A stretch of DNA of 55,633 bases from a virus (IMGVR_UViG_3300023109_000031:1-55633); one strand, 5' to 3'. Shown: positions 2,182 through 46,059, numbered from the stretch's first letter. Notes: a model not told the origin generated them from the letters alone. Program-made: numbers and translations.

Positions 2182-3122
2182 TGTCCTATATCCTGTCGCC
2201 CTTGAATATTTGTTTTCTCACCTTCCCACAATTGAGTCTGTGCATTGACCTGATTTACGATCGCAGAAGTTTCACCGAGTTCAGCAGTGAAGGAACTTTT
2301 TTGTAGGTTACCAGCAACCGAAGTATCGATCGCACGCACACGCCCTTCGATTTCCTCGAGCGGGAGACCCGATTTTTTAGCAACATCTGATATCGTGTCA
2401 GCGATACTATTCGGATCAAGAGAGGAGAGAGCTGTCAGCGCGCCCTTAATATCCAGATCATTAAAGGCTCCGCCCGTCATAGCGGATAACTCATTGATAG
2501 CGGTCTTGTCTACTTTCAGCGTAATGTTCTCCATAGTCACCGGAGTCAGGTCGCCCTGTTGAGCTTTAATCTTCCGCTTGACTTCGGCGAATGCTTCGTC
2601 AAGCTTCTCGCCCATCTTCTCGGCAGTATCGATTCCCGCACGGATAGCGGCCTTCGCCTCAGCCTGTAGATCGGGTGGGAGAATTTTTGTGAGAGCATCT
2701 GTTAATTCGGCAGGATCTTTTCCGCTGGCTTCCTGTAGACTGGCTTTCAGTGCACGTGGAGAACTCGCTCCGGCGAACTCTTTCAGGAATCCGTTACTCA
2801 CAGCAGATCCACTTCCTACGATTGCATCTAGACTTGTTTTATCAGAAGTCTCGACAGTCTCGGTCAGAGGTATTCCATCTATCTCTGATGTCAGAAAACA
2901 GATAGCATCTCCGGGAGCGATACCATCAGAGTCGGGATGATCTCGAGATACAGATACGGAACGGAACCCATTGCTGGTGGAAATCCCTAGCCCCACATCT
3001 GATGTGTTTAATGCCTTAAACCTTTGTTCTGCTTCTCTACTCGCAGTAGTCAATGATTCAAGGTCAGAGCTCTGTCTGATATTATCTAATTCATCTCTTA
3101 TTTGTTGTATTGTAATACTCAT
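2178..3122 (-). CDS. Hypothetical baseplate-region protein, largely helical
   Basis: 314-aa ORF with ATGA overlaps at both ends inside the gp5 region; no motif recognised. Confidence 0.6.
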   Translation of the reverse strand: MSITIQQIRDELDNIRQSSDLESLTTASREAEQRFKALNTSDVGLGISTSNGFRSVSVSRDHPDSDGIAPGDAICFLTSEIDGIPLTETVETSDKTSLDAIVGSGSAVSNGFLKEFAGASSPRALKASLQEASGKDPAELTDALTKILPPDLQAEAKAAIRAGIDTAEKMGEKLDEAFAEVKRKIKAQQGDLTPVTMENITLKVDKTAINELSAMTGGAFNDLDIKGALTALSSLDPNSIADTISDVAKKSGLPLEEIEGRVRAIDTSVAGNLQKSSFTAELGETSAIVNQVNAQTQLWEGEKTNIQGRQDIGQ

Positions 3123-3943
3123 GTAGCAAACCTTTCGAATACCTCTGATGCCAACGCCTCACGCTGGCTCGTACGAAGACCGAACTTTTTTAGATATTTA
3201 CTCTGAAAAACTTGAGTAGATTCTTTAATAGTCTGCGCACCGTATAGGAGACCCAAACCGAACACGGGATATGTTCTTAACTCATATACTATAAACTGTA
3301 GTTGTGTGTTTAATGCCTCATAGTCTAGACCGCGCTGACCTGAGAAGAACTTCAGATTAGCAAAACGGTTTCCGGCTGTTTCTGTGGTACCCCACCTAGC
3401 CACCCCATATTCTCCACCGACTAAAATACTTGGGTTTAATGCAGCTCCAGACTCTGCTGCTAGATTACCTATTATACCACATGTTTGTTCGGGAGTAAAC
3501 CCTATAGCATTAAAAAAGTTAAAGGCTTTCTCTGCTGGAGTAGCGCCGAAGAGAGAGGCTTGTGTTGTCTTTTCTGCTAGATTAATATCCGACCTACCCG
3601 TTAATACAGCGAGTTGTTGTGGTGATGGATCTTCTATACTATGGAACGATCCCAATACAAATGGTTGCTGGCTTTGCTTTCCGTCAAGAAAAAAACCTAC
3701 GACCTTAGCACCTAATTGTAATTGGGGCATCTTCCCTATACCTGATACACCACCCTCTGTAGAAGGCGTCAATACATTGGCCCAAGGTAGCTTGAGTGAC
3801 GGTATATCCTCCATTCGAGGGCTGTGGACACCGATGATTCTGACCTGTACTCTACCCAGCTGGAGTGGATCAGCCGTACTCGAGACGGTCCCTATGAACC
3901 ACCTATGGTCGTCCCCATAGTAATTGTTCTCTATAGTCCTCAT
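3119..3943 (-). CDS. gp5: gp5 N-terminal OB domain fused to phage tail lysozyme (Phage_lysozyme2-like)
   Basis: WFIGTV..DPLQLGRVQVRIIGVH...LPWA...VVGFFLDG..QQPFVLGS (gp5 OB); GIIGNLAAESG...GVARW...TQLQFIVYEL (tail lysozyme). Confidence 0.85.
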   Translation of the reverse strand: MRTIENNYYGDDHRWFIGTVSSTADPLQLGRVQVRIIGVHSPRMEDIPSLKLPWANVLTPSTEGGVSGIGKMPQLQLGAKVVGFFLDGKQSQQPFVLGSFHSIEDPSPQQLAVLTGRSDINLAEKTTQASLFGATPAEKAFNFFNAIGFTPEQTCGIIGNLAAESGAALNPSILVGGEYGVARWGTTETAGNRFANLKFFSGQRGLDYEALNTQLQFIVYELRTYPVFGLGLLYGAQTIKESTQVFQSKYLKKFGLRTSQREALASEVFERFAT

Positions 3944-38400: not shown

Positions 38401-39999
38401 TTATTCACCTTTCATTTGCATTAATGCTCGACGCATTCCATTTTGTACGCCTTCTTTTTGAGTCGGCTTATTTACGATTGCCTTATCACCTTTAGGATTA
38501 TCACCTGGGCGCTTTTTACCCGCTGGTCCTTTTCTACCTGCATCTGCTGCATCTTTATGACTTTTTTCTTCAGTGTCATTAACTTCTTTTTTATGCTTAG
38601 CAGCAAATTCTTTAGACTTAGGTGACTCTTTGTCCATGATTCCTTCAGGCTTTGTTGCACCTTTAGTTGCATCTTCACGGACTTCGTTAAACTTCTTCAT
38701 TTTCTTTTCAGGCTCTTTTTCTGCTGACACTGGCTTTGGCGCTGGTTTTTTATCTTTATTCTTAAATGCAGCAATATCAGCTTTAGCTGTTGCCAAACGA
38801 TCTTTATCAGCAGCTTTTTTCTTCATTTTACCAAGCTTCTTTTGTGCAGCATCTGCTCTACCAGAAGTGGAGAATCTATTGACAACCTTCTTACCCATTC
38901 TGCCAATGCCTCTTGCGATTGTACCAACAATCTCATCCATTTCTTTTCGCTCGATACGCTCAGCAAGATTGTCAAAATCTTCATCAGACATGTCTACAAG
39001 CTCATCAAAGGAATATGAGGAATATGATTCTTTTATTTTACCACCACCTAAATGATCGTCAACATACTTTTGTAATTTTTTAGGATCTGGATGAGTTAGA
39101 GTTACGTTATCTCCATCTGCACCTTTAGCGGTTGTCTTAACTTTCATACCAGCTTTTTTTGCGTGTTTATATCCTGTAAAATAATCGGTGTCGAATGTTG
39201 CTTCTTTCTTTAGTGATTCTTTTGTGATTTCTTTCATATCTTCGCAGTTGTATTTCTTACCTGCAAATACGAATGACTTTTCACCGGCATCTTTAGCTGC
39301 TTTTGCTGCAGCAATAAATCCGCGCTTTCCTTCTTCTACTTCATCTTCGTCAGAATCTTTAGAATCTGCATCAGCTGGATTTTCATCGTCAGCTTTAAGC
39401 TTCTTCTTTTTCATTTCTTTTTTTAGCTTAAATTCTTTGACATCAGCTGGATCACAATCACCTTCATGGACCTTGCCACAAGCTTCACAGACTTCTTCTG
39501 TGTCTTCTACCATTTGACCTTTTTGCATGATTTGCTTTCGAGCATCTTTATCGTAAATTTCTAAAGACTTCATATCAAACTTAGCTGCTTTTAGTTTAGC
39601 CATCAGATCTTTAAGATCTTTTGCACCCATATTACCATGCTGCTTTTTATCACCAACACGATAAGTAATTTCTTTTGCTTCAGTCTTTGACTCTTCTTTT
39701 TCATCGTCTTTAGCCATTGCTTTACCAATAGCTTTACGACGCTTATGCAAGAACTTATCGGATGCATCGACGTCACCGTCATTATCTACATCCTTATCTT
39801 TACGATCAGCAAATTTCTTTTTAGCAGCCTTTGGATCTACTTTATCCATGCCATCGCCGTCATCAGATTTGTCATTAGACGCATCTTCGTCAGCTTTTTT
39901 CATTAATTCTTTATGCTTTTCGTTTGACTCTTTATTTTTTTCAGTGACAACTTCTAAGTATGCAGCACTGATGTTTTTTAGATCTTCGGTATTCATCAT
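38401..39999 (-). CDS. K/D/E-rich putative internal head protein
   Basis: DKDVDNDGDVDASDKFLHKRRKAI; many (I/V/L)xE sites; late box at 40076. Confidence 0.65.
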   Translation of the reverse strand: MMNTEDLKNISAAYLEVVTEKNKESNEKHKELMKKADEDASNDKSDDGDGMDKVDPKAAKKKFADRKDKDVDNDGDVDASDKFLHKRRKAIGKAMAKDDEKEESKTEAKEITYRVGDKKQHGNMGAKDLKDLMAKLKAAKFDMKSLEIYDKDARKQIMQKGQMVEDTEEVCEACGKVHEGDCDPADVKEFKLKKEMKKKKLKADDENPADADSKDSDEDEVEEGKRGFIAAAKAAKDAGEKSFVFAGKKYNCEDMKEITKESLKKEATFDTDYFTGYKHAKKAGMKVKTTAKGADGDNVTLTHPDPKKLQKYVDDHLGGGKIKESYSSYSFDELVDMSDEDFDNLAERIERKEMDEIVGTIARGIGRMGKKVVNRFSTSGRADAAQKKLGKMKKKAADKDRLATAKADIAAFKNKDKKPAPKPVSAEKEPEKKMKKFNEVREDATKGATKPEGIMDKESPKSKEFAAKHKKEVNDTEEKSHKDAADAGRKGPAGKKRPGDNPKGDKAIVNKPTQKEGVQNGMRRALMQMKGE

Positions 40000-40013
40000 T
40001 GGCCTTCTCCTTT

Positions 40014-40286
40014 TTACATCCACATATGTGCTACATACGTGCCTACTGCAGCAACCACTGCTGCATATACAATTTTATTTATAAGGCTCACTGTTCGTGA
40101 GTTATCATCGACTTTTTTCTCAATATCGTCGAGTTTACTAGACAATTTATTAAGACGTTGATACATTTTGTTGTGGTCATCGTTCAAAGCGTTAATCTTT
40201 TCTTCTGCACGCGCCATAGCTATCATTGCATCGACAAGTTTATCAAGTTTCTTTTCAATTTTATCGAGTCTATTTTCTACGCTCAT
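40014..40286 (-). CDS. Coiled-coil protein with C-terminal TM helix
   Basis: RLDKIEKKLDKL..AMARAEEK; hydrophobic C-terminus. Confidence 0.65.
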   Translation of the reverse strand: MSVENRLDKIEKKLDKLVDAMIAMARAEEKINALNDDHNKMYQRLNKLSSKLDDIEKKVDDNSRTVSLINKIVYAAVVAAVGTYVAHMWM

Positions 40287-40290
40287 TTTA

Positions 40291-40608
40291 TTACCATTTC
40301 TCTTTATCAGCCCAGTATGCACCAGACATTTTACCTTTAGCAATATTTTTCCGATGACGAGCTTTGAACGATTTACGTTTAGCTTTCATGTTATCAGACT
40401 CTCCTTTTTTAGGATCTCCTGCTGTAGAAGCACCTTGCTCACCAAAGCGAATAGTTTTAATTTTGTCACCTTCTTTAGCCACAACTATGTGAGATTTAGT
40501 CGCGTGTGAAGGAGTTCTTTTAGGTTTATTGAAACCTTCAACTCCAGCCTTCTTGAGTCTAGGATCTTTTTCTTCTATAAAAGTCTTAAATTTATCCACC
40601 GAACTCAT
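40291..40608 (-). CDS. Putative internal virion protein
   Basis: N-term KFKTFIEE; IRFGEQG, RKSFKARH, SGAYWA. Confidence 0.65.
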   Translation of the reverse strand: MSSVDKFKTFIEEKDPRLKKAGVEGFNKPKRTPSHATKSHIVVAKEGDKIKTIRFGEQGASTAGDPKKGESDNMKAKRKSFKARHRKNIAKGKMSGAYWADKEKW

Positions 40609-40822
40609 GCCCCGCTACTCTCTTCATCTGCTTATCAAATTCAGATTGATCTGGCTTACTTTTGTAAAGTTTAATAGAAATCTCAGGTCTTTCTTTACCT
40701 TTGATTCTCCACTTATATCCGTCTTTTTTGTGGTCAGCATCAGTAGTCTTTACGACTCTGCGCTTGTAACCAGCTTCCCAAGTCTCAGATTTTTTTTCGG
40801 TAAAAGACTTGAAACCTAACAT
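40592..40822 (-). CDS. Putative internal virion protein
   Basis: N-term MLGFKSFTE. Confidence 0.6.
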   Translation of the reverse strand: MLGFKSFTEKKSETWEAGYKRRVVKTTDADHKKDGYKWRIKGKERPEISIKLYKSKPDQSEFDKQMKRVAGHEFGG

Positions 40823-41508
40823 TATTTCTCTGCGTCCTTATACATCTTAAGAGCTTTTACAAAGTTCTTATCTTTCATCATCCGCTTTGATTCAGGATGA
40901 TTAGGATTATCATGAGCCATCCGAATACTGTCATCGTCTACCTTTTTATCTTTTACAAATTTCATATATACTGACATTTTCTTTGAGTCAATTTCTCGTG
41001 CTTCATGAGTTTTGAATGACTCATATCCAGCTCTCATAGATTTTACCTTTTTACCCTTCTTAAATTTAGAAGAGTCACCTCTATCAAGCATACCAGCAAC
41101 GTCATCGCCGGGATCATCTTTACCGTGATAGCCTTGAGCTTTACCCGGCTTAAGCTTTTTAATCTTTCCACCTTTTTTCTTAAAGTCAGCAATGGCTTTA
41201 TCGTGAGCAGCCTTTTCTTTTGGTGACATAGCTTCTTCAATATCTTCGTTTTGACGTTTAAGAACTGCCATAACTTGTTTATGACCAGATAGACCTTTGC
41301 TAATCTTATCAATAGCTTTTACAGCACCAGTCATATTGCCACCTTTGTAACGTGGATCAGATGCGATACCAATAGCCATTTTGATTTCTTTTGGTGAGAA
41401 ACCTTCTTTGACTTCTTCAACTGGTACAGCTGTATCGCACTGTTGACAACATTCAGCTGTTCCGCAATTAACGTGTGCACTTTCTCTTATTTCTTGGAAC
41501 GTTTTCAT
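40822..41508 (-). CDS. Putative internal virion protein (multi-module)
   Basis: N-term MKTFQEIRE; CGTAECCQQC; AIGIASDPRYKGGNMTGA. Confidence 0.65.
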   Translation of the reverse strand: MKTFQEIRESAHVNCGTAECCQQCDTAVPVEEVKEGFSPKEIKMAIGIASDPRYKGGNMTGAVKAIDKISKGLSGHKQVMAVLKRQNEDIEEAMSPKEKAAHDKAIADFKKKGGKIKKLKPGKAQGYHGKDDPGDDVAGMLDRGDSSKFKKGKKVKSMRAGYESFKTHEAREIDSKKMSVYMKFVKDKKVDDDSIRMAHDNPNHPESKRMMKDKNFVKALKMYKDAEK

Positions 41509-41754
41509 TTATTTTACCTTTGCTGCTAAATCTTTATCAGCACCACCCCATGTGCCTTTAGATTTAGTTACGAATGAGTTAACACGAGCAAAGGCCCATT
41601 GTTGAGGTGTTGTCCCTGGACGATGACTTGTCTTCCAAGCTGCCATTCCACGATTATAAACTTTCTTTAGAATTCCTAGAGGCATACCAGACTTTTCAGC
41701 CTTATTCTTTAGTCCTTCATCTGATTCAGTGATATAATCTCTAAAGTTGACCAT
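41509..41754 (-). CDS. Putative internal virion protein (DUF5824-like)
   Basis: N-term MVNFRDYITE; VYNRGMAAW...RPG.TPQQWAFARVNSF. Confidence 0.7.
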   Translation of the reverse strand: MVNFRDYITESDEGLKNKAEKSGMPLGILKKVYNRGMAAWKTSHRPGTTPQQWAFARVNSFVTKSKGTWGGADKDLAAKVK

Positions 41755-42746
41755 TAGTCATCTCCAAACATTGCTTTGAATTTTTTAGTATGTTTACTTG
41801 TCTTTGTTTTTGCTTTAGCATCACCCGGAGCTGGCTTATATGCAGATGGATCGTCATCTGCTTTATCTGCATTCTTATCGAAATGAGCATCTCTTTTATC
41901 CTTTGTGGACTTAGAAATCTCTTCAATCTTTTCAACTGCATCTAACCATTTACGATAAACCTCACCGTTAGCTTCAACGATAAGGTAATTGGCGCCTAAG
42001 TGTTTAATTGTAGCAACAAGTCCAGATTCTTTAATAGCAACTGTATCACCTACAGAAAAAAGATCTTCATTAATAAATGCTTCTCTTACAGCAGAAACGG
42101 GTTCGAGTTGAACGTGGTGCTTAAATTGTTTTTCTTCTTTAAGACCCATGCCTTTACGAACAGCATTGTAAATATTTTTAGCATCAGCATTTTTAACTGC
42201 TTTAGGTAAACCTTGAGAGAATGTAGTAAAGTCATTATCGCTTGCTGCAGCTCTCATCTTTGATGCTGACATTCCAGACGTGCCTTCAGCGTCAGGATCT
42301 CGGTCACCTGCACTTGTAACTATAATTTTTTCAAAGTTAAAGAAACCATGACGGCCTTTTTTGCCGTTTACTGCATTTAAGCGAAGATCAAATTCTTTTA
42401 TTCTATCGGAGCCAACTACCATTACGCAGCTCTTGAATCCTTCGTCGTATATTGCACTAGCAACTTCCATAACATTACGAACAGTAGGACCACTCATAAC
42501 AATTGAGCGAGCATGCTTTGGAAATGCTTTTCTTGCAAACTTTACTTTTGCTTTATATGCTAAGGGATTCTTTTCTTTATCTTGAGATTGAGACAAGAAT
42601 ATACGATATGGATTTTTTCCAGCCTTTTTAGCTAAAGTAGTCAAAAGCTTTTCATGGCCAGTAGTAGGCGGATTCATTCTACCAAACGTAAAATAAACTG
42701 TCTTTTCTTCTTCTACCAAAAATTGACTAAATGAATTTATATTCAT
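41754..42746 (-). CDS. HIGH-superfamily nucleotidyltransferase (cytidyltransferase/NMNAT-like)
   Basis: FTFGRMNPPTTGHEKL, KNPL, VVGSDR, SAGDRDPD, MSASKMR; N-term SFSQFLVE. Confidence 0.85.
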   Translation of the reverse strand: MNINSFSQFLVEEEKTVYFTFGRMNPPTTGHEKLLTTLAKKAGKNPYRIFLSQSQDKEKNPLAYKAKVKFARKAFPKHARSIVMSGPTVRNVMEVASAIYDEGFKSCVMVVGSDRIKEFDLRLNAVNGKKGRHGFFNFEKIIVTSAGDRDPDAEGTSGMSASKMRAAASDNDFTTFSQGLPKAVKNADAKNIYNAVRKGMGLKEEKQFKHHVQLEPVSAVREAFINEDLFSVGDTVAIKESGLVATIKHLGANYLIVEANGEVYRKWLDAVEKIEEISKSTKDKRDAHFDKNADKADDDPSAYKPAPGDAKAKTKTSKHTKKFKAMFGDD

Positions 42747-43072
42747 CGTCTATCAGCTCTCCTCTTCGGTGCCAGATTCATTCTTGTGTGAACCTTAAGC
42801 ATACCTTGCCTCTGTTTAGCTTGGCGCTCAACAGACTTACGTTTAGCAAATCCTACACTGGATTTACTTTTTCCTTTTAATAATTTTTTATAAAGATCAG
42901 ATCTAGCTTGACGGCTAGCTCTTGATTTAATACGACTAGCACCTGCGCGCCTTCGCCCTTGCATCTTACGAGCTCTTGCAAGTTTGTGCTTATTTCTTTT
43001 CATTGAACGAGCTAAAGATTTGCGACCTACGGCAGTTAGCGCTTCAATAAAGAATTCCTTAAAACCAATCAT
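42743..43072 (-). CDS. Highly basic putative internal/core protein
   Basis: N-term MIGFKEFFIEAL; R/K-rich. Confidence 0.65.
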   Translation of the reverse strand: MIGFKEFFIEALTAVGRKSLARSMKRNKHKLARARKMQGRRRAGASRIKSRASRQARSDLYKKLLKGKSKSSVGFAKRKSVERQAKQRQGMLKVHTRMNLAPKRRADRR

Positions 43073-44295
43073 CGTCCCGGCTTATCCCATCCTTTTAATA
43101 TATCTGGTGAAAAGTTGTTATATGAAAATTCCATACGATCAACAATTTTCACCGCATCACCACCAAGTTGGTCAATGGCCACATAGCCTTCTTCGCCAGT
43201 AACCTTATAACCTTGCTTTGTCTTGACAAAAGTGTCAATATTTTTTAATTTATTAAGTCTATTTATAAGTTTTAGTTTAGCAAGAACGATGACTTTTTGT
43301 AATTCGAACATTTGAACTAAAGATTTTTTATTCTTTTTTGAAAAGAATAATAGCAAATCATCTCTAACTGCTTTTTGAGCAGATTTGCCTTTATCAGTTT
43401 TACGTTTGTCTATTTCTTTCTGAAATTTATCATTGATGAAACCAATGAGCTTATCCACGTGACTAGACGTATTGCCAATGACTTGGCCTTTTCGTACATA
43501 CGTGTTATTAAAGGTTTCAATCTTTTGAGCCAGATCACCATTCTTTTCAAGCTGTCGTAAAGTATTACCACTGATTGAGTTAAAAAGTTTCCCAGCTTGC
43601 GTAAGTAATTCATTGACTTCCTCCGTTTCTTTCTTGGACATTGTTGCTTTTGTCATATCACGTAACATTGCATCCTGTGACCATACCGAAGATATTTTTT
43701 TGAATTTGCTTGTATCTACACCATAAGAAGCTTTCATAGATTCAAATGTTTTGCCTTTATACGTGGTGTGCCATACAATTCCAATTTTTGCTTTCTTGAC
43801 TTGCTTGGCCATGTCCGAGCTAGCCGGAATAGCATAAACGATCGTATTAGGGTGGAAAGTAACATATTTTTCTCCCTCTATTTTTTTAGTAGTGACGTCG
43901 CCAGGGCCATAAAGAAAGTCACCTTGAATGACTCCTTTAATCCCTAAACCGGGTAATAGTCCTAAAGCAGCTTTAAGCTTATCAGCAAGATCCCCTGAAG
44001 TATCAGCATCCACATCAGCGTCTGATTTATACACTTTAGGATTGACGTTAAATATACCTTTTTTGGCAACAAAGAATTTATTATCACGTGGGTCGATGCC
44101 AGCAAAAATGGCAGGAGCACCATCCCACTTAACAGACACTTTTCCAGCATGTGAGCCTCCTAACATGTCTCTGAGAGAACGTAGCGCCATAATAGCTTGG
44201 CGTGTTCCATTCACTCCGCCATAAAGAACTTTGTCCTCGATGTGAGTCATGTGAGTATTTTTCTGTTCAGTAATAAAATTCTTAAAATTTTCCAT
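43069..44295 (-). CDS. DUF6267-like protein with ATP-dependent ligase (KxDG) motifs
   Basis: HMTHIED, SVKWDGAPA, VIQGDFLY, GEEGYVA, AVKIVDRMEFS; N-term MENFKNFITE. Confidence 0.75.
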   Translation of the reverse strand: MENFKNFITEQKNTHMTHIEDKVLYGGVNGTRQAIMALRSLRDMLGGSHAGKVSVKWDGAPAIFAGIDPRDNKFFVAKKGIFNVNPKVYKSDADVDADTSGDLADKLKAALGLLPGLGIKGVIQGDFLYGPGDVTTKKIEGEKYVTFHPNTIVYAIPASSDMAKQVKKAKIGIVWHTTYKGKTFESMKASYGVDTSKFKKISSVWSQDAMLRDMTKATMSKKETEEVNELLTQAGKLFNSISGNTLRQLEKNGDLAQKIETFNNTYVRKGQVIGNTSSHVDKLIGFINDKFQKEIDKRKTDKGKSAQKAVRDDLLLFFSKKNKKSLVQMFELQKVIVLAKLKLINRLNKLKNIDTFVKTKQGYKVTGEEGYVAIDQLGGDAVKIVDRMEFSYNNFSPDILKGWDKPGR

Positions 44296-44302
44296 TGTTT
44301 TA

Positions 44303-44331
44303 ATTATACCACATTCTTTATGAAAAGTAAA
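44303..44331 (-). promoter_or_regulatory. Early-type promoter giving a probably leaderless mRNA
   Basis: TTTACT(44326-31)-17-TATAAT(44303-08); ATG at 44295, no SD. Confidence 0.75.
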
Positions 44332-44354: not shown

Positions 44355-44927
44355 TTATTTAAGAACAGTCGCTACTAAGTGTATTCTGTTCTTTTCACTA
44401 CCATTGAAGAAATTGTGGTATAACGTATTGTCTACCACGTAAGCAGTTCCATCAGCTGGCATATAATATGCACTATCTTCTACAATCATCTTATTGCCTC
44501 TATTAGTTACAATAGGAATATGTAGTCTTTTTTCTGGATCTCTATGCCATGATAAACATGAACGAGGTGGTTTCATTAAAAAACGAACTCTACCGATTTT
44601 CCAGTGTTTTTTCATTTCGTTATAAACCCACTCTGTATAAGTCCCAGAAAATTCTGGACAAATTTCAGTGTAAGCTTCTTCATCTACAAAGGGAAGTCTT
44701 TCTTCCTCATCAATATCATTCTCTGGATAAGTCCAATACTTGCCTCTAACATTACCACCAGTGACTGATAATGAGTCGCCGGGTTTTCTATTAATGCAAA
44801 TTGCATTGAAATCTATTTTAGTTTTATCGTCTGTAACGTGTTCATTAGTCTTTAAGAAATTATCGTAATCTGCTTCTAATCTTAAAACATCAATTGGAAA
44901 CTTATTGTATTCTATAATATGTGTCAT
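44355..44927 (-). CDS. 2OG-Fe(II) oxygenase-like (Asp/Asn beta-hydroxylase type)
   Basis: GRVRFL, SWHRDPEKRLHIPI.TN, DNTLYH..FNG...RIHLV. Confidence 0.8.
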   Translation of the reverse strand: MTHIIEYNKFPIDVLRLEADYDNFLKTNEHVTDDKTKIDFNAICINRKPGDSLSVTGGNVRGKYWTYPENDIDEEERLPFVDEEAYTEICPEFSGTYTEWVYNEMKKHWKIGRVRFLMKPPRSCLSWHRDPEKRLHIPIVTNRGNKMIVEDSAYYMPADGTAYVVDNTLYHNFFNGSEKNRIHLVATVLK

Positions 44928-46019: not shown

Positions 46020-46027
46020 TATTTATA
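46020..46027 (-). promoter_or_regulatory. T4 late promoter heading the nuclease/ligase-like/internal-protein run
   Basis: TATAAATA directly after a terminator, followed by SD GGGAG. Confidence 0.8.
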
Positions 46028-46028
46028 T

Positions 46029-46059
46029 AAAAACATAAGGGCGCTTGCGCGCCCTTATG
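46029..46059 (-). terminator. Intrinsic terminator
   Basis: CATAAGGGCGC-GCAA-GCGCCCTTATG-TTTTT (11-bp stem, GNRA loop). Confidence 0.9.

Follow-up and report, generated by a model that had tools for sequence, protein, structure and literature searches.

An operon of leader-tagged, probably capsid-internal proteins with a ligase-fold enzyme and a HIGH-type nucleotidyltransferase in a marine T4-like bacteriophage

The viral sequence IMGVR_UViG_3300023109_000031 (positions 1 to 55,633; hereinafter the window) is a 55.6-kb stretch, about 30% complete, of a T4-like marine myophage. It contains baseplate and tail genes, ribonucleotide reductase, three tRNAs and numerous minus-strand genes. Its closest cultured relative is Phage C48C1 (Genbank accession number OQ984149; Kyanoviridae, 156 kb). 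The region studied here, between positions 40291 and 44295, holds seven open reading frames (ORFs) on the minus strand without gaps, adjacent genes abutting or overlapping by 1–17 bases (Table 1). Each of the seven predicted proteins begins with a short leader resembling the capsid-targeting sequence of T4 internal proteins, and two of them are predicted nucleotidyltransferases: a member of the DUF6267 family with a ligase-like fold and a HIGH-type transferase. A sequence-only reading of the window had described seven consecutive genes of this kind, and the ORF listing bore out both their limits and their N-termini. No match of this cluster to cultured phages was obtained by megablast; at protein level, the DUF6267 product is 67.9% identical to that of C48C1.

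Table 1. Positions of the leader-bearing genes, the genes at the head of the block and the transcription signals in the window (aa, amino acids).
Feature	Position	Strand	Leader	Remarks
HAD-phosphatase-like protein, 201 aa	1576..2181	-	MIKFSEFLVE	Eighth tagged gene; DVDET (DxDxT)
Basic protein, 105 aa	40291..40608	-	MSSVDKFKTFIEE	phrog_7595 (1e-41)
Basic protein, 76 aa	40592..40822	-	MLGFKSFTE	pI 9.8
Basic protein, 228 aa	40822..41508	-	MKTFQEIRE	pI 9.4; C48C1 gene starts MKKFTEIRE
DUF5824 protein, 81 aa	41509..41754	-	MVNFRDYITE	Pfam DUF5824, 2.2e-18
HIGH-type nucleotidyltransferase, 330 aa	41754..42746	-	MNINSFSQFLVEEE	
Extremely basic protein, 109 aa	42743..43072	-	MIGFKEFFIE	pI 12.0; 37 Lys/Arg
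DUF6267 ligase-fold protein, 408 aa	43069..44295	-	MENFKNFITE	Followed by the conserved domain start KNTHMTHIED
Box TATAAATA	43260..43267	-		Within the DUF6267 gene (3' part); the next gene begins about 190 nt further on
Sigma-70-like promoter	44303..44331	-		TTTACT, 17 nt, extended -10 TG-TATAAT; ends 7 nt from the DUF6267 ATG
2-oxoglutarate (2OG)-oxygenase-like protein	44355-44927	-		
Protein of 358 aa	44924-46000	-		phrog_8438; block head
GC-rich hairpin and T run (46029-46058), then T4-type late promoter box TATAAATA (46020-46027)	46020..46058	-		

All seven products of the cluster are basic (pI 9.4–12.0). The 109-aa protein, like a T4 internal protein in charge and size, matched no Pfam or PHROG family, and its counterpart in C48C1 starts MLSFKQFVSE. 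Likewise, no family was matched by the 228-aa protein in Pfam and PHROG searches. The 105-aa protein weakly resembles phrog_220, 'minor head protein and DNA pilot' (9e-5), and is also matched by the N-terminus of the metagenomic protein P0124, in which it is fused ahead of DUF6267.

The leaders were compared with those of T4. In the ten-residue T4 tag, residues 4 and 7 serve targeting, and residues 8 and 10 processing by gp21, according to the part of PMC9026906 that deals with it. In the T4 record (NC_000866), MKTYQEFIAE opens ipII and ipIII and MKTFKEF opens ipI. As in a capsid targeting sequence of the T4 type, positions 4 and 7 of the window leaders are aromatic, position 8 is aliphatic and Glu stands at 9–10. 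The exact T4 register is kept in four of the eight tagged genes of the window (MENFKNFITE, MIGFKEFFIE, MVNFRDYITE and MIKFSEFLVE) and in a fifth, that of the 105-aa protein, if the GTG at codon 4 is taken as start, giving MDKFKTFIEE. Two of the remaining leaders (MKTFQEIRE and MLGFKSFTE) are shorter by one residue and one is longer by two. The window has 670 candidates that start with ATG (internal ATGs also counted) and reach 40 aa, and the pattern ^M.{0,6}F..[FYI].{1,2}E matched 15 of them: the seven genes of the cluster, one further genuine start (1576-2181) and seven internal ATGs or short overlapping frames. As the background is about one per 100 starts, seven in a row lie far beyond chance. 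The mean nucleotide identity of leader codons 2–10 is just 0.50 and synonymous differences are present; therefore, it is the peptide that is under selection, and not a DNA repeat.

Among the first-ATG starts of the whole C48C1 genome, those at 57293, 61824 (DUF6267), 63080, 64854, 66424 and 68091 show the pattern; two extra matches, outside the matching cluster, are chance-like. The transferase of C48C1 reads VIKNFSQYLLEEE from an upstream GTG. The annotated start of this cytidyltransferase (OQ984149, 63514-64857; L001 8688-10031) seems too far downstream, the frame being open from the upstream GTG and reading VIKNFSQYLLEEEREVYFTFGRMNPP, by which the leader and the first strand are restored. 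A wider survey was made on the best 150 DUF6267 representatives, of which 112 were Met-started and 380–430 aa long; six without the H-x-x-H anchor were dropped, leaving 106. A strict leader was found in 39 of these and a relaxed one in 26, always immediately ahead of the conserved domain start. In addition, a leader-like motif occurs at the internal junction of some fused proteins (FTDFITE in P0122 and FKDFLTE in P0131). In the AlphaFold2 (AF2) model of the DUF6267 protein of the window, residues 1–9 are disordered and are the only ones with a predicted local distance difference test (pLDDT) below 50.

The 408-aa protein belongs to Pfam DUF6267 (E 6.8e-102), a family of 2552 representative clusters (50% identity, E ≤ 0.001) and 341 cultured-phage records, mainly of cyanophages, and its neighbours in a protein atlas are unnamed viral clusters. 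The sequence-only reading had recognized KWDG, QGD, EGYV and VKIV in the order of ligase motifs and called the protein ligase-like. KWDG, corresponding to motif I with its putative catalytic Lys, is present at residues 56–59, and QGD, EGYV and VKIV, candidates for motifs III, IV and V, at 124–126, 369–372 and 382–385; K56, D58, G59, G125, D126, E369, G370 and K383 are invariant in all 66 diverse homologues aligned. Other invariant residues in this alignment are H18, P61, G66, F75, K79, N150, Y154, G172, H176, N264, K340 and F390, and F147 and Y154, conserved or invariant, are candidate motif IIIa residues. The AF2 model (pLDDT 93.6; predicted template modelling score 0.90) predicts a nucleotidyltransferase core split by a long helical insert (approximately residues 210–350). 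No OB domain with motif VI was found in the model, which extends just about 25 residues beyond motif V; therefore DUF6267 is not to be filed as a classical DNA ligase. Foldseek against PDB gave weak matches (best E 0.082) with DNA ligases and T4 Rnl2 among the top rows. The structural searches also gave figures of 8.0 with 5cot, 7.8 with 6n0t, 7.6 with 1xdn, 7.4 with 1s68, 7.2 with 2hvq, 7.0 with 9r3w and 6.8 with 9do4 (T4 Rnl1), and the best matches were RNA ligases. The description as ligase-like finds support in the predicted fold and in the invariant motif residues.

The 330-aa partner had been described from sequence as a HIGH-type transferase, in agreement with its predicted fold and its motifs. 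It is predicted to comprise a HIGH-type domain (about residues 15–205), a small beta domain (about 218–295) and a basic tail. It matched phrog_3041 (9.7e-75) and phrog_395 (2.3e-64), both named 'cytidyltransferase', and scored 18.5 bits with Pfam CTP_transf_like, under the 21-bit cut-off; several homologues pass it in precomputed annotation. The motifs are PPTTGH at residues 26–31 (TTGH at 28–31) and SASKMR at 160–165, the second, ISST-like motif, and T28, G30, H31, S160, K163 and R165 are invariant in 24 homologues. The model (pLDDT 76.7) gave 46 PDB matches by Foldseek at E ≤ 0.001, among them the NMNAT 4yp6 (E 9.9e-5; TM 0.67), to which PPAT and NadD came equal; over these three, E was about 1e-4 and TM 0.6–0.69. 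Compared with NMNAT, PPAT and NadD, the transferase shares the Rossmann-like fold and the T-x-G-H and S-x-S-K-x-R motifs and differs by the extra beta domain, the basic tail, the head-targeting leader and the sub-threshold Pfam score. The beta domain (residues 218-295) exists as a separate gene in Syn1 (L002 8730-9008; phrog_4808) with the leader-like start MRDFKKLRE; the name of this gene, 'ribonucleotide reductase alpha subunit', looks like a carried-over mislabel. A complex prediction with DUF6267 (residues 11–408) and the transferase domain (13–210) gave a score of 0.00, that is, no verdict, and was used neither way.

Homologues of the transferase have been found in virions. As stated in a section of Sullivan et al. 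(2010; PMC3037559), the putative cytidylyltransferase T4-GC190 was detected in purified S-SM1 virions by mass spectrometry. This protein corresponds by its GenBank label to SSM1_190, which starts MKKFSAFLNE and is 39.8% identical to the transferase of the window. DUF6267 bears the cluster label T4-GC71 in the same study. In S-CREM2 virions, the cytidylyltransferase gp154 was detected by mass spectrometry with three unique peptides, and gp155, gp156 and gp160 were also listed (PMC10665884, Table 3). With MKNFSSFLTE as its first residues, S-CREM2 gp154 shares 31.7% identity with the transferase of the window. The S-CREM2 authors suggest that such proteins may travel in the capsid (PMC10665884). 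No DUF6267 gene was found beside the S-CREM2 transferase in the 12-kb stretch examined.

Relatives of DUF6267 are also found fused to other domains. Precomputed Pfam annotation of 111 long DUF6267 proteins gave a kinase in 3, transferase plus DUF5824 in 3, DUF5824 only in 4, an ADP-ribosyltransferase in 1 and DUF6267 alone in 100, some of which hold a weak HIGH-type match (e.g., P0425). The kinase is of the Zeta_toxin/AAA_33 P-loop type (P0122; P0392-P0394, one cluster of 344 members). The transferase plus DUF5824 occurs in P0126, P0401 and P0403, and the transferase in the opposite order in P0188 and P0202. The ADP-ribosyltransferase exoenzyme domain (E 6.8e-25) is found in P0414, from a 150-kb metagenomic contig, with the leader MNFLTFLTE. 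DUF5824, a separate gene in the window, is joined to the transferase C-terminus in P0126, P0401, P0403 and HTVC008M gp130. The gene order in HTVC008M is DUF6267, a basic protein, a P-loop kinase (gp129) and the transferase-DUF5824 protein (gp130). When the kinases of P0122 and HTVC008M gp129 were searched in the window, none was found at E ≤ 1e-3.

The eighth tagged gene, encoding the HAD-phosphatase-like protein, lies far from the cluster and adjoins an amidase gene (955-1575) and a gp5-like hub lysozyme gene (3119-3943). Its product has a weak match to phrog_415, 'polynucleotide kinase' (E 1e-6), and reached 21.1 bits with Pfam Acid_phosphat_B against a 27-bit cut-off. Its atlas neighbours are viral clusters with Acid_phosphat_B in 10–19% of their members, partly annotated as HAD IIIB, and no similarity was found to T4 PseT (BLASTP), to PDB sequences or to cultured phages. 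A part of PMC7824862 gives ligase, kinase and HAD phosphatase as the standard parts of phage RNA end-repair, and the kinase fusions together with the tagged, putative HAD phosphatase agree with end-healing and sealing.

The 358-aa gene, the 2OG-oxygenase-like gene and the seven tagged genes follow in line on one strand. The terminator-like hairpin and the late promoter box stand at the head of this block, the box 19 nt ahead of the ATG of the 358-aa gene with a GGGAG Shine-Dalgarno sequence in between, and the terminator-like sites between the block head and the tagged genes are only weak and all within coding sequence. Since the late promoter box follows a terminator, late expression, as required for head assembly, is plausible. 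The box itself is only mildly enriched in the window (10 against 5.45 expected, a count attained in 3 of 100 shuffles). Ahead of the DUF6267 ATG no Shine-Dalgarno sequence can be seen, and a transcript from the adjacent sigma-70-like promoter would be leaderless or almost so. As regards the two genes at the block head, the order in S-SM1 is 2OG oxygenase, an unnamed gene and DUF6267, and in HTVC008M an unnamed 352-aa gene (gp126) stands immediately before DUF6267.

Two further minus-strand genes come after the cluster. The first (40014-40286) encodes a 90-aa coiled-coil protein whose C-terminal helix is hydrophobic. Among the PHROGs it weakly matches 'hemolysin' (phrog_937), and it may be holin- or XhlA-like. 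In C48C1, Syn1 and S-SM1, too, genes with N-termini resembling it come after the cluster. The other (38401-40023) encodes a protein of 540 aa rich in Lys, Asp and Glu, the translation of which probably begins in fact at the ATGATG at 39999, after an AAGGAG Shine-Dalgarno sequence; a TATAAATA box lies at 40076-40083. Its DVDNDGD...SDKFLHKRRKAIGK stretch is also present in S-SM1 SSM1_191, and HTVC008M gp133 matches there too. SSM1_191 is named 'cytidyltransferase' in GenBank, yet no such motif is seen in the N-terminal 60 residues printed.

Comparison with known systems places the cluster closest in kind to the internal proteins of T4 (IPI, IPII and IPIII), with which it shares a leader of about ten residues, small basic products, a clustered and variable gene set and a gp21-type protease in the lineage, since C48C1 has one (Peptidase_S77, E 1.2e-40). 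The window differs in that the tag is also carried by predicted enzymes of 37–45 kDa and in that the seven tagged genes form one tight operon. T4 Alt is a head-carried enzyme, cleaved by gp21, that is ejected and acts before phage transcription, as given in a section of PMC9026906. The idea of a head-carried enzyme is the same, and an ADP-ribosyltransferase domain is joined to DUF6267 in one relative; however, the predicted chemistry in the window is of the ligase-fold and HIGH type, and the cluster has no ADP-ribosyltransferase. With the ATP-dependent RNA ligases (Naegleria NgrRnl/Rnl5, T4 Rnl2, T4 Rnl1, Trl1 and REL1), DUF6267 shares Lys-x-Asp-Gly, Glu-Gly and the Lys of a candidate motif V, all of them invariant. 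It differs from them in that about 140 residues of helical insert separate the candidate motifs IIIa and IV, and has none of the known accessory domains and no significant sequence similarity. T4 tRNA repair by Pnkp and Rnl1 has parts of the same kinds as those seen here, namely a ligase fold and a putative HAD phosphatase with DxDxT, to which relatives add a P-loop kinase. The T4 Pnkp and Rnl1 proteins are synthesized once infection has begun and are not known to be head proteins. In contrast, the proteins of the window bear head-targeting leaders, and the HAD protein has no direct PseT similarity. Finally, descriptions of the ejection proteins of giant phages (SPN3US and the phiKZ group) report many head-internal proteins, enzymes included, processed by the prohead protease; the proteins of the window are unrelated to these and their tag is of the T4 type. 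The cleavage motif of giant-phage head proteins differs from that of T4.

On these data we consider it probable, with some reserve, that the cluster is an operon of capsid-internal (ejection) proteins serving end repair or cofactor supply at infection. Our confidence in the head targeting taken alone is higher than in this reading as a whole, and capsid targeting by the leaders is well supported, though indirectly. In the mechanism proposed, an N-terminal propeptide of the capsid-targeting type would dock each product to the prohead scaffolding core, and a gp21-type prohead protease would cleave it after the Glu at position 9–13. The mature basic proteins would remain with the packaged DNA and go into the host alongside it, the cargo including two putative enzymes, the DUF6267 ligase-fold nucleotidyltransferase and the NMNAT/PPAT-like HIGH-type nucleotidyltransferase. 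Most likely, the set would heal and seal broken nucleic-acid ends, or supply a needed nucleotide cofactor, before any phage gene expression. The sequence-only reading had proposed both capsid targeting and injection, with the re-ligation of cleaved tRNA or RNA or the rebuilding of NAD-type cofactors as the purpose; repair of DNA nicks in the entering genome or an ordinary role inside the cell would agree with the present data as well. The targeting is strengthened by the four T4 positions kept and by the leader-bearing transferase homologues in two virions; cleavage and ejection we infer, as we do packaging in the phage of the window, catalytic activity and substrate. The enzymes are probably injected with the DNA because all seven genes share the T4 head-loading tag.

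Several observations weigh against this reading. The likeness of DUF6267 to ligases is structural only: Foldseek of the model against PDB gave nothing at E ≤ 0.001, phmmer against PDB sequences gave five matches, all with E > 0.2 and none a ligase, and a profile of 66 sequences found no ligase in PDB sequences either. The hhalign comparisons with T4 Rnl2 (E 0.38) and T4 Rnl1 (E 0.09) were not significant, the latter covering motifs IV–V only, with EGYVA...K opposite Rnl1 residues 223–241. No recognizable leader was present in 41 of the 106 DUF6267 representatives, 19 of which begin at the domain and 22 of which have room for a leader but no motif; therefore, the job of the enzyme need not always involve packaging. 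The DUF6267 homologues of Syn1 and S-SM1 also lack the leader. The strong sigma-70-like promoter abutting the DUF6267 start suggests that this gene may be expressed early too. No prohead protease was found in the window, which covers about 30% of a genome; as the control genomes of this search gave none either, the result does not speak for its absence. As for the virion data, a passage of PMC10665884 cautions that abundant non-structural proteins may co-purify with virions. A depletion of internal [LI]-x-E sites was also considered, and this argument was dropped, as 7 sites were observed in the eight proteins against 6.7 expected from shuffles (DUF6267 has 0 against 2.1 expected, P 0.11, and the transferase 6).

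Some of these points would fit another explanation, which we regard as unlikely, namely that the proteins are intracellular replication or repair enzymes, that DUF6267 is the otherwise missing nick-sealing DNA ligase of the lineage, and that the leader is irrelevant or diverts a minor fraction to heads. The cyanophage cluster does lie between the replication-region genes gp41/mazG and gp61/nrdA, and no DNA ligase was found among the C48C1 feature-table product names examined. Both the common occurrence of DUF6267 versions without leader and the early-type promoter ahead of the gene are also in its favour. However, the leader is present on all seven genes of the operon, including those for tiny basic proteins without enzymatic fold, and a transferase homologue is present in virions. 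Furthermore, DUF6267 lacks an OB domain and is matched best by RNA ligases, and one relative is fused to the kind of domain found in T4 Alt, a packaged and ejected head ADP-ribosyltransferase (as described in part of PMC9026906). It is far less credible that the shared N-terminus is no targeting signal at all and arose incidentally, from constraints on the initiation of translation or from gene starts recombining with each other. The leader does use AT-rich codons (AAA, TTT, GAA), which are favoured where genes begin, and a portion of PMC3012670 discusses a conserved leader region of T-even phages alongside the fast turnover of internal-protein genes. Yet the pattern stands at only eight gene starts of the window, seven of them adjacent, the four key residues are kept via synonymous and conservative changes in spite of the low nucleotide identity, and fused proteins carry the motif at internal junctions, at which translation does not start. 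We consider this explanation highly improbable.

A packaged kit could also serve the rescue of nicotinamide adenine dinucleotide (NAD)-type cofactors, the transferase and a NadR-like kinase of relatives rebuilding NAD+ against NAD-depleting defences and DUF6267 using or regulating the pool. The best Foldseek matches of the transferase are indeed nicotinamide mononucleotide (NMN) and nicotinic acid mononucleotide (NaMN) adenylyltransferases (E 1e-4; TM 0.67–0.69), pairs of HIGH transferase and P-loop kinase in jumbo phages are read as NAD salvage in a section of PMC7824862, and the S-CREM2 authors at one point name their protein an NMNAT homologue (PMC10665884). Against this, the PPAT score equals the NMNAT score, so the substrate is not told by the fold; the kinase is fused to DUF6267 and not to the transferase; it matches Zeta_toxin and AAA_33 and no riboside-kinase family; and the cluster showed neither a Nampt nor a Nudix partner. 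NAD rescue as the purpose of the kit thus seems to us quite unlikely.

Taking the operon, as preferred here, to encode capsid-internal proteins for end repair or cofactor supply, a bolder proposal can be made, which we offer tentatively and hold to be rather doubtful. By way of a T4-type targeting tag, the heads of abundant marine T4-like phages might be loaded with an end-healing and sealing set, made up of a new-family ligase, a kinase, a HAD phosphatase and an adenylyltransferase, that acts before the first transcript. DUF6267 might then add a sixth kind to the ATP-dependent RNA/DNA ligases and be the first ligase known to travel as virion cargo. The broken strands repaired by the set could be host tRNAs cleaved by anticodon nucleases or an entering genome nicked by sunlight. 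The idea of cytidylyltransferases carried by cyanophage virions has already been published. In the literature searched, which was short of most subscription journals, the T4-type tag on cytidylyltransferases or on a whole operon, the ligase fold of DUF6267 and its fusions to kinase and ADP-ribosyltransferase domains were not found; PMC12801897 mentions only TagD, which is unrelated.

Of the uncharacterised phage proteins that ocean metagenomes contain, DUF6267 and its partner transferase belong to the commoner ones, and two leads are now available for them: a predicted ligase fold for DUF6267 and the head interior as the probable location of the operon products, which would hence be the first into the cell. 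If this is true, the idea of the T4 internal proteins would be widened, so that it takes in a repair or cofactor kit of several enzymes as well as small inhibitors, and the recurrent cytidylyltransferases in cyanophage virion proteomes would be explained. The leader would also be a natural portable tag for loading proteins into the heads of marine phages.

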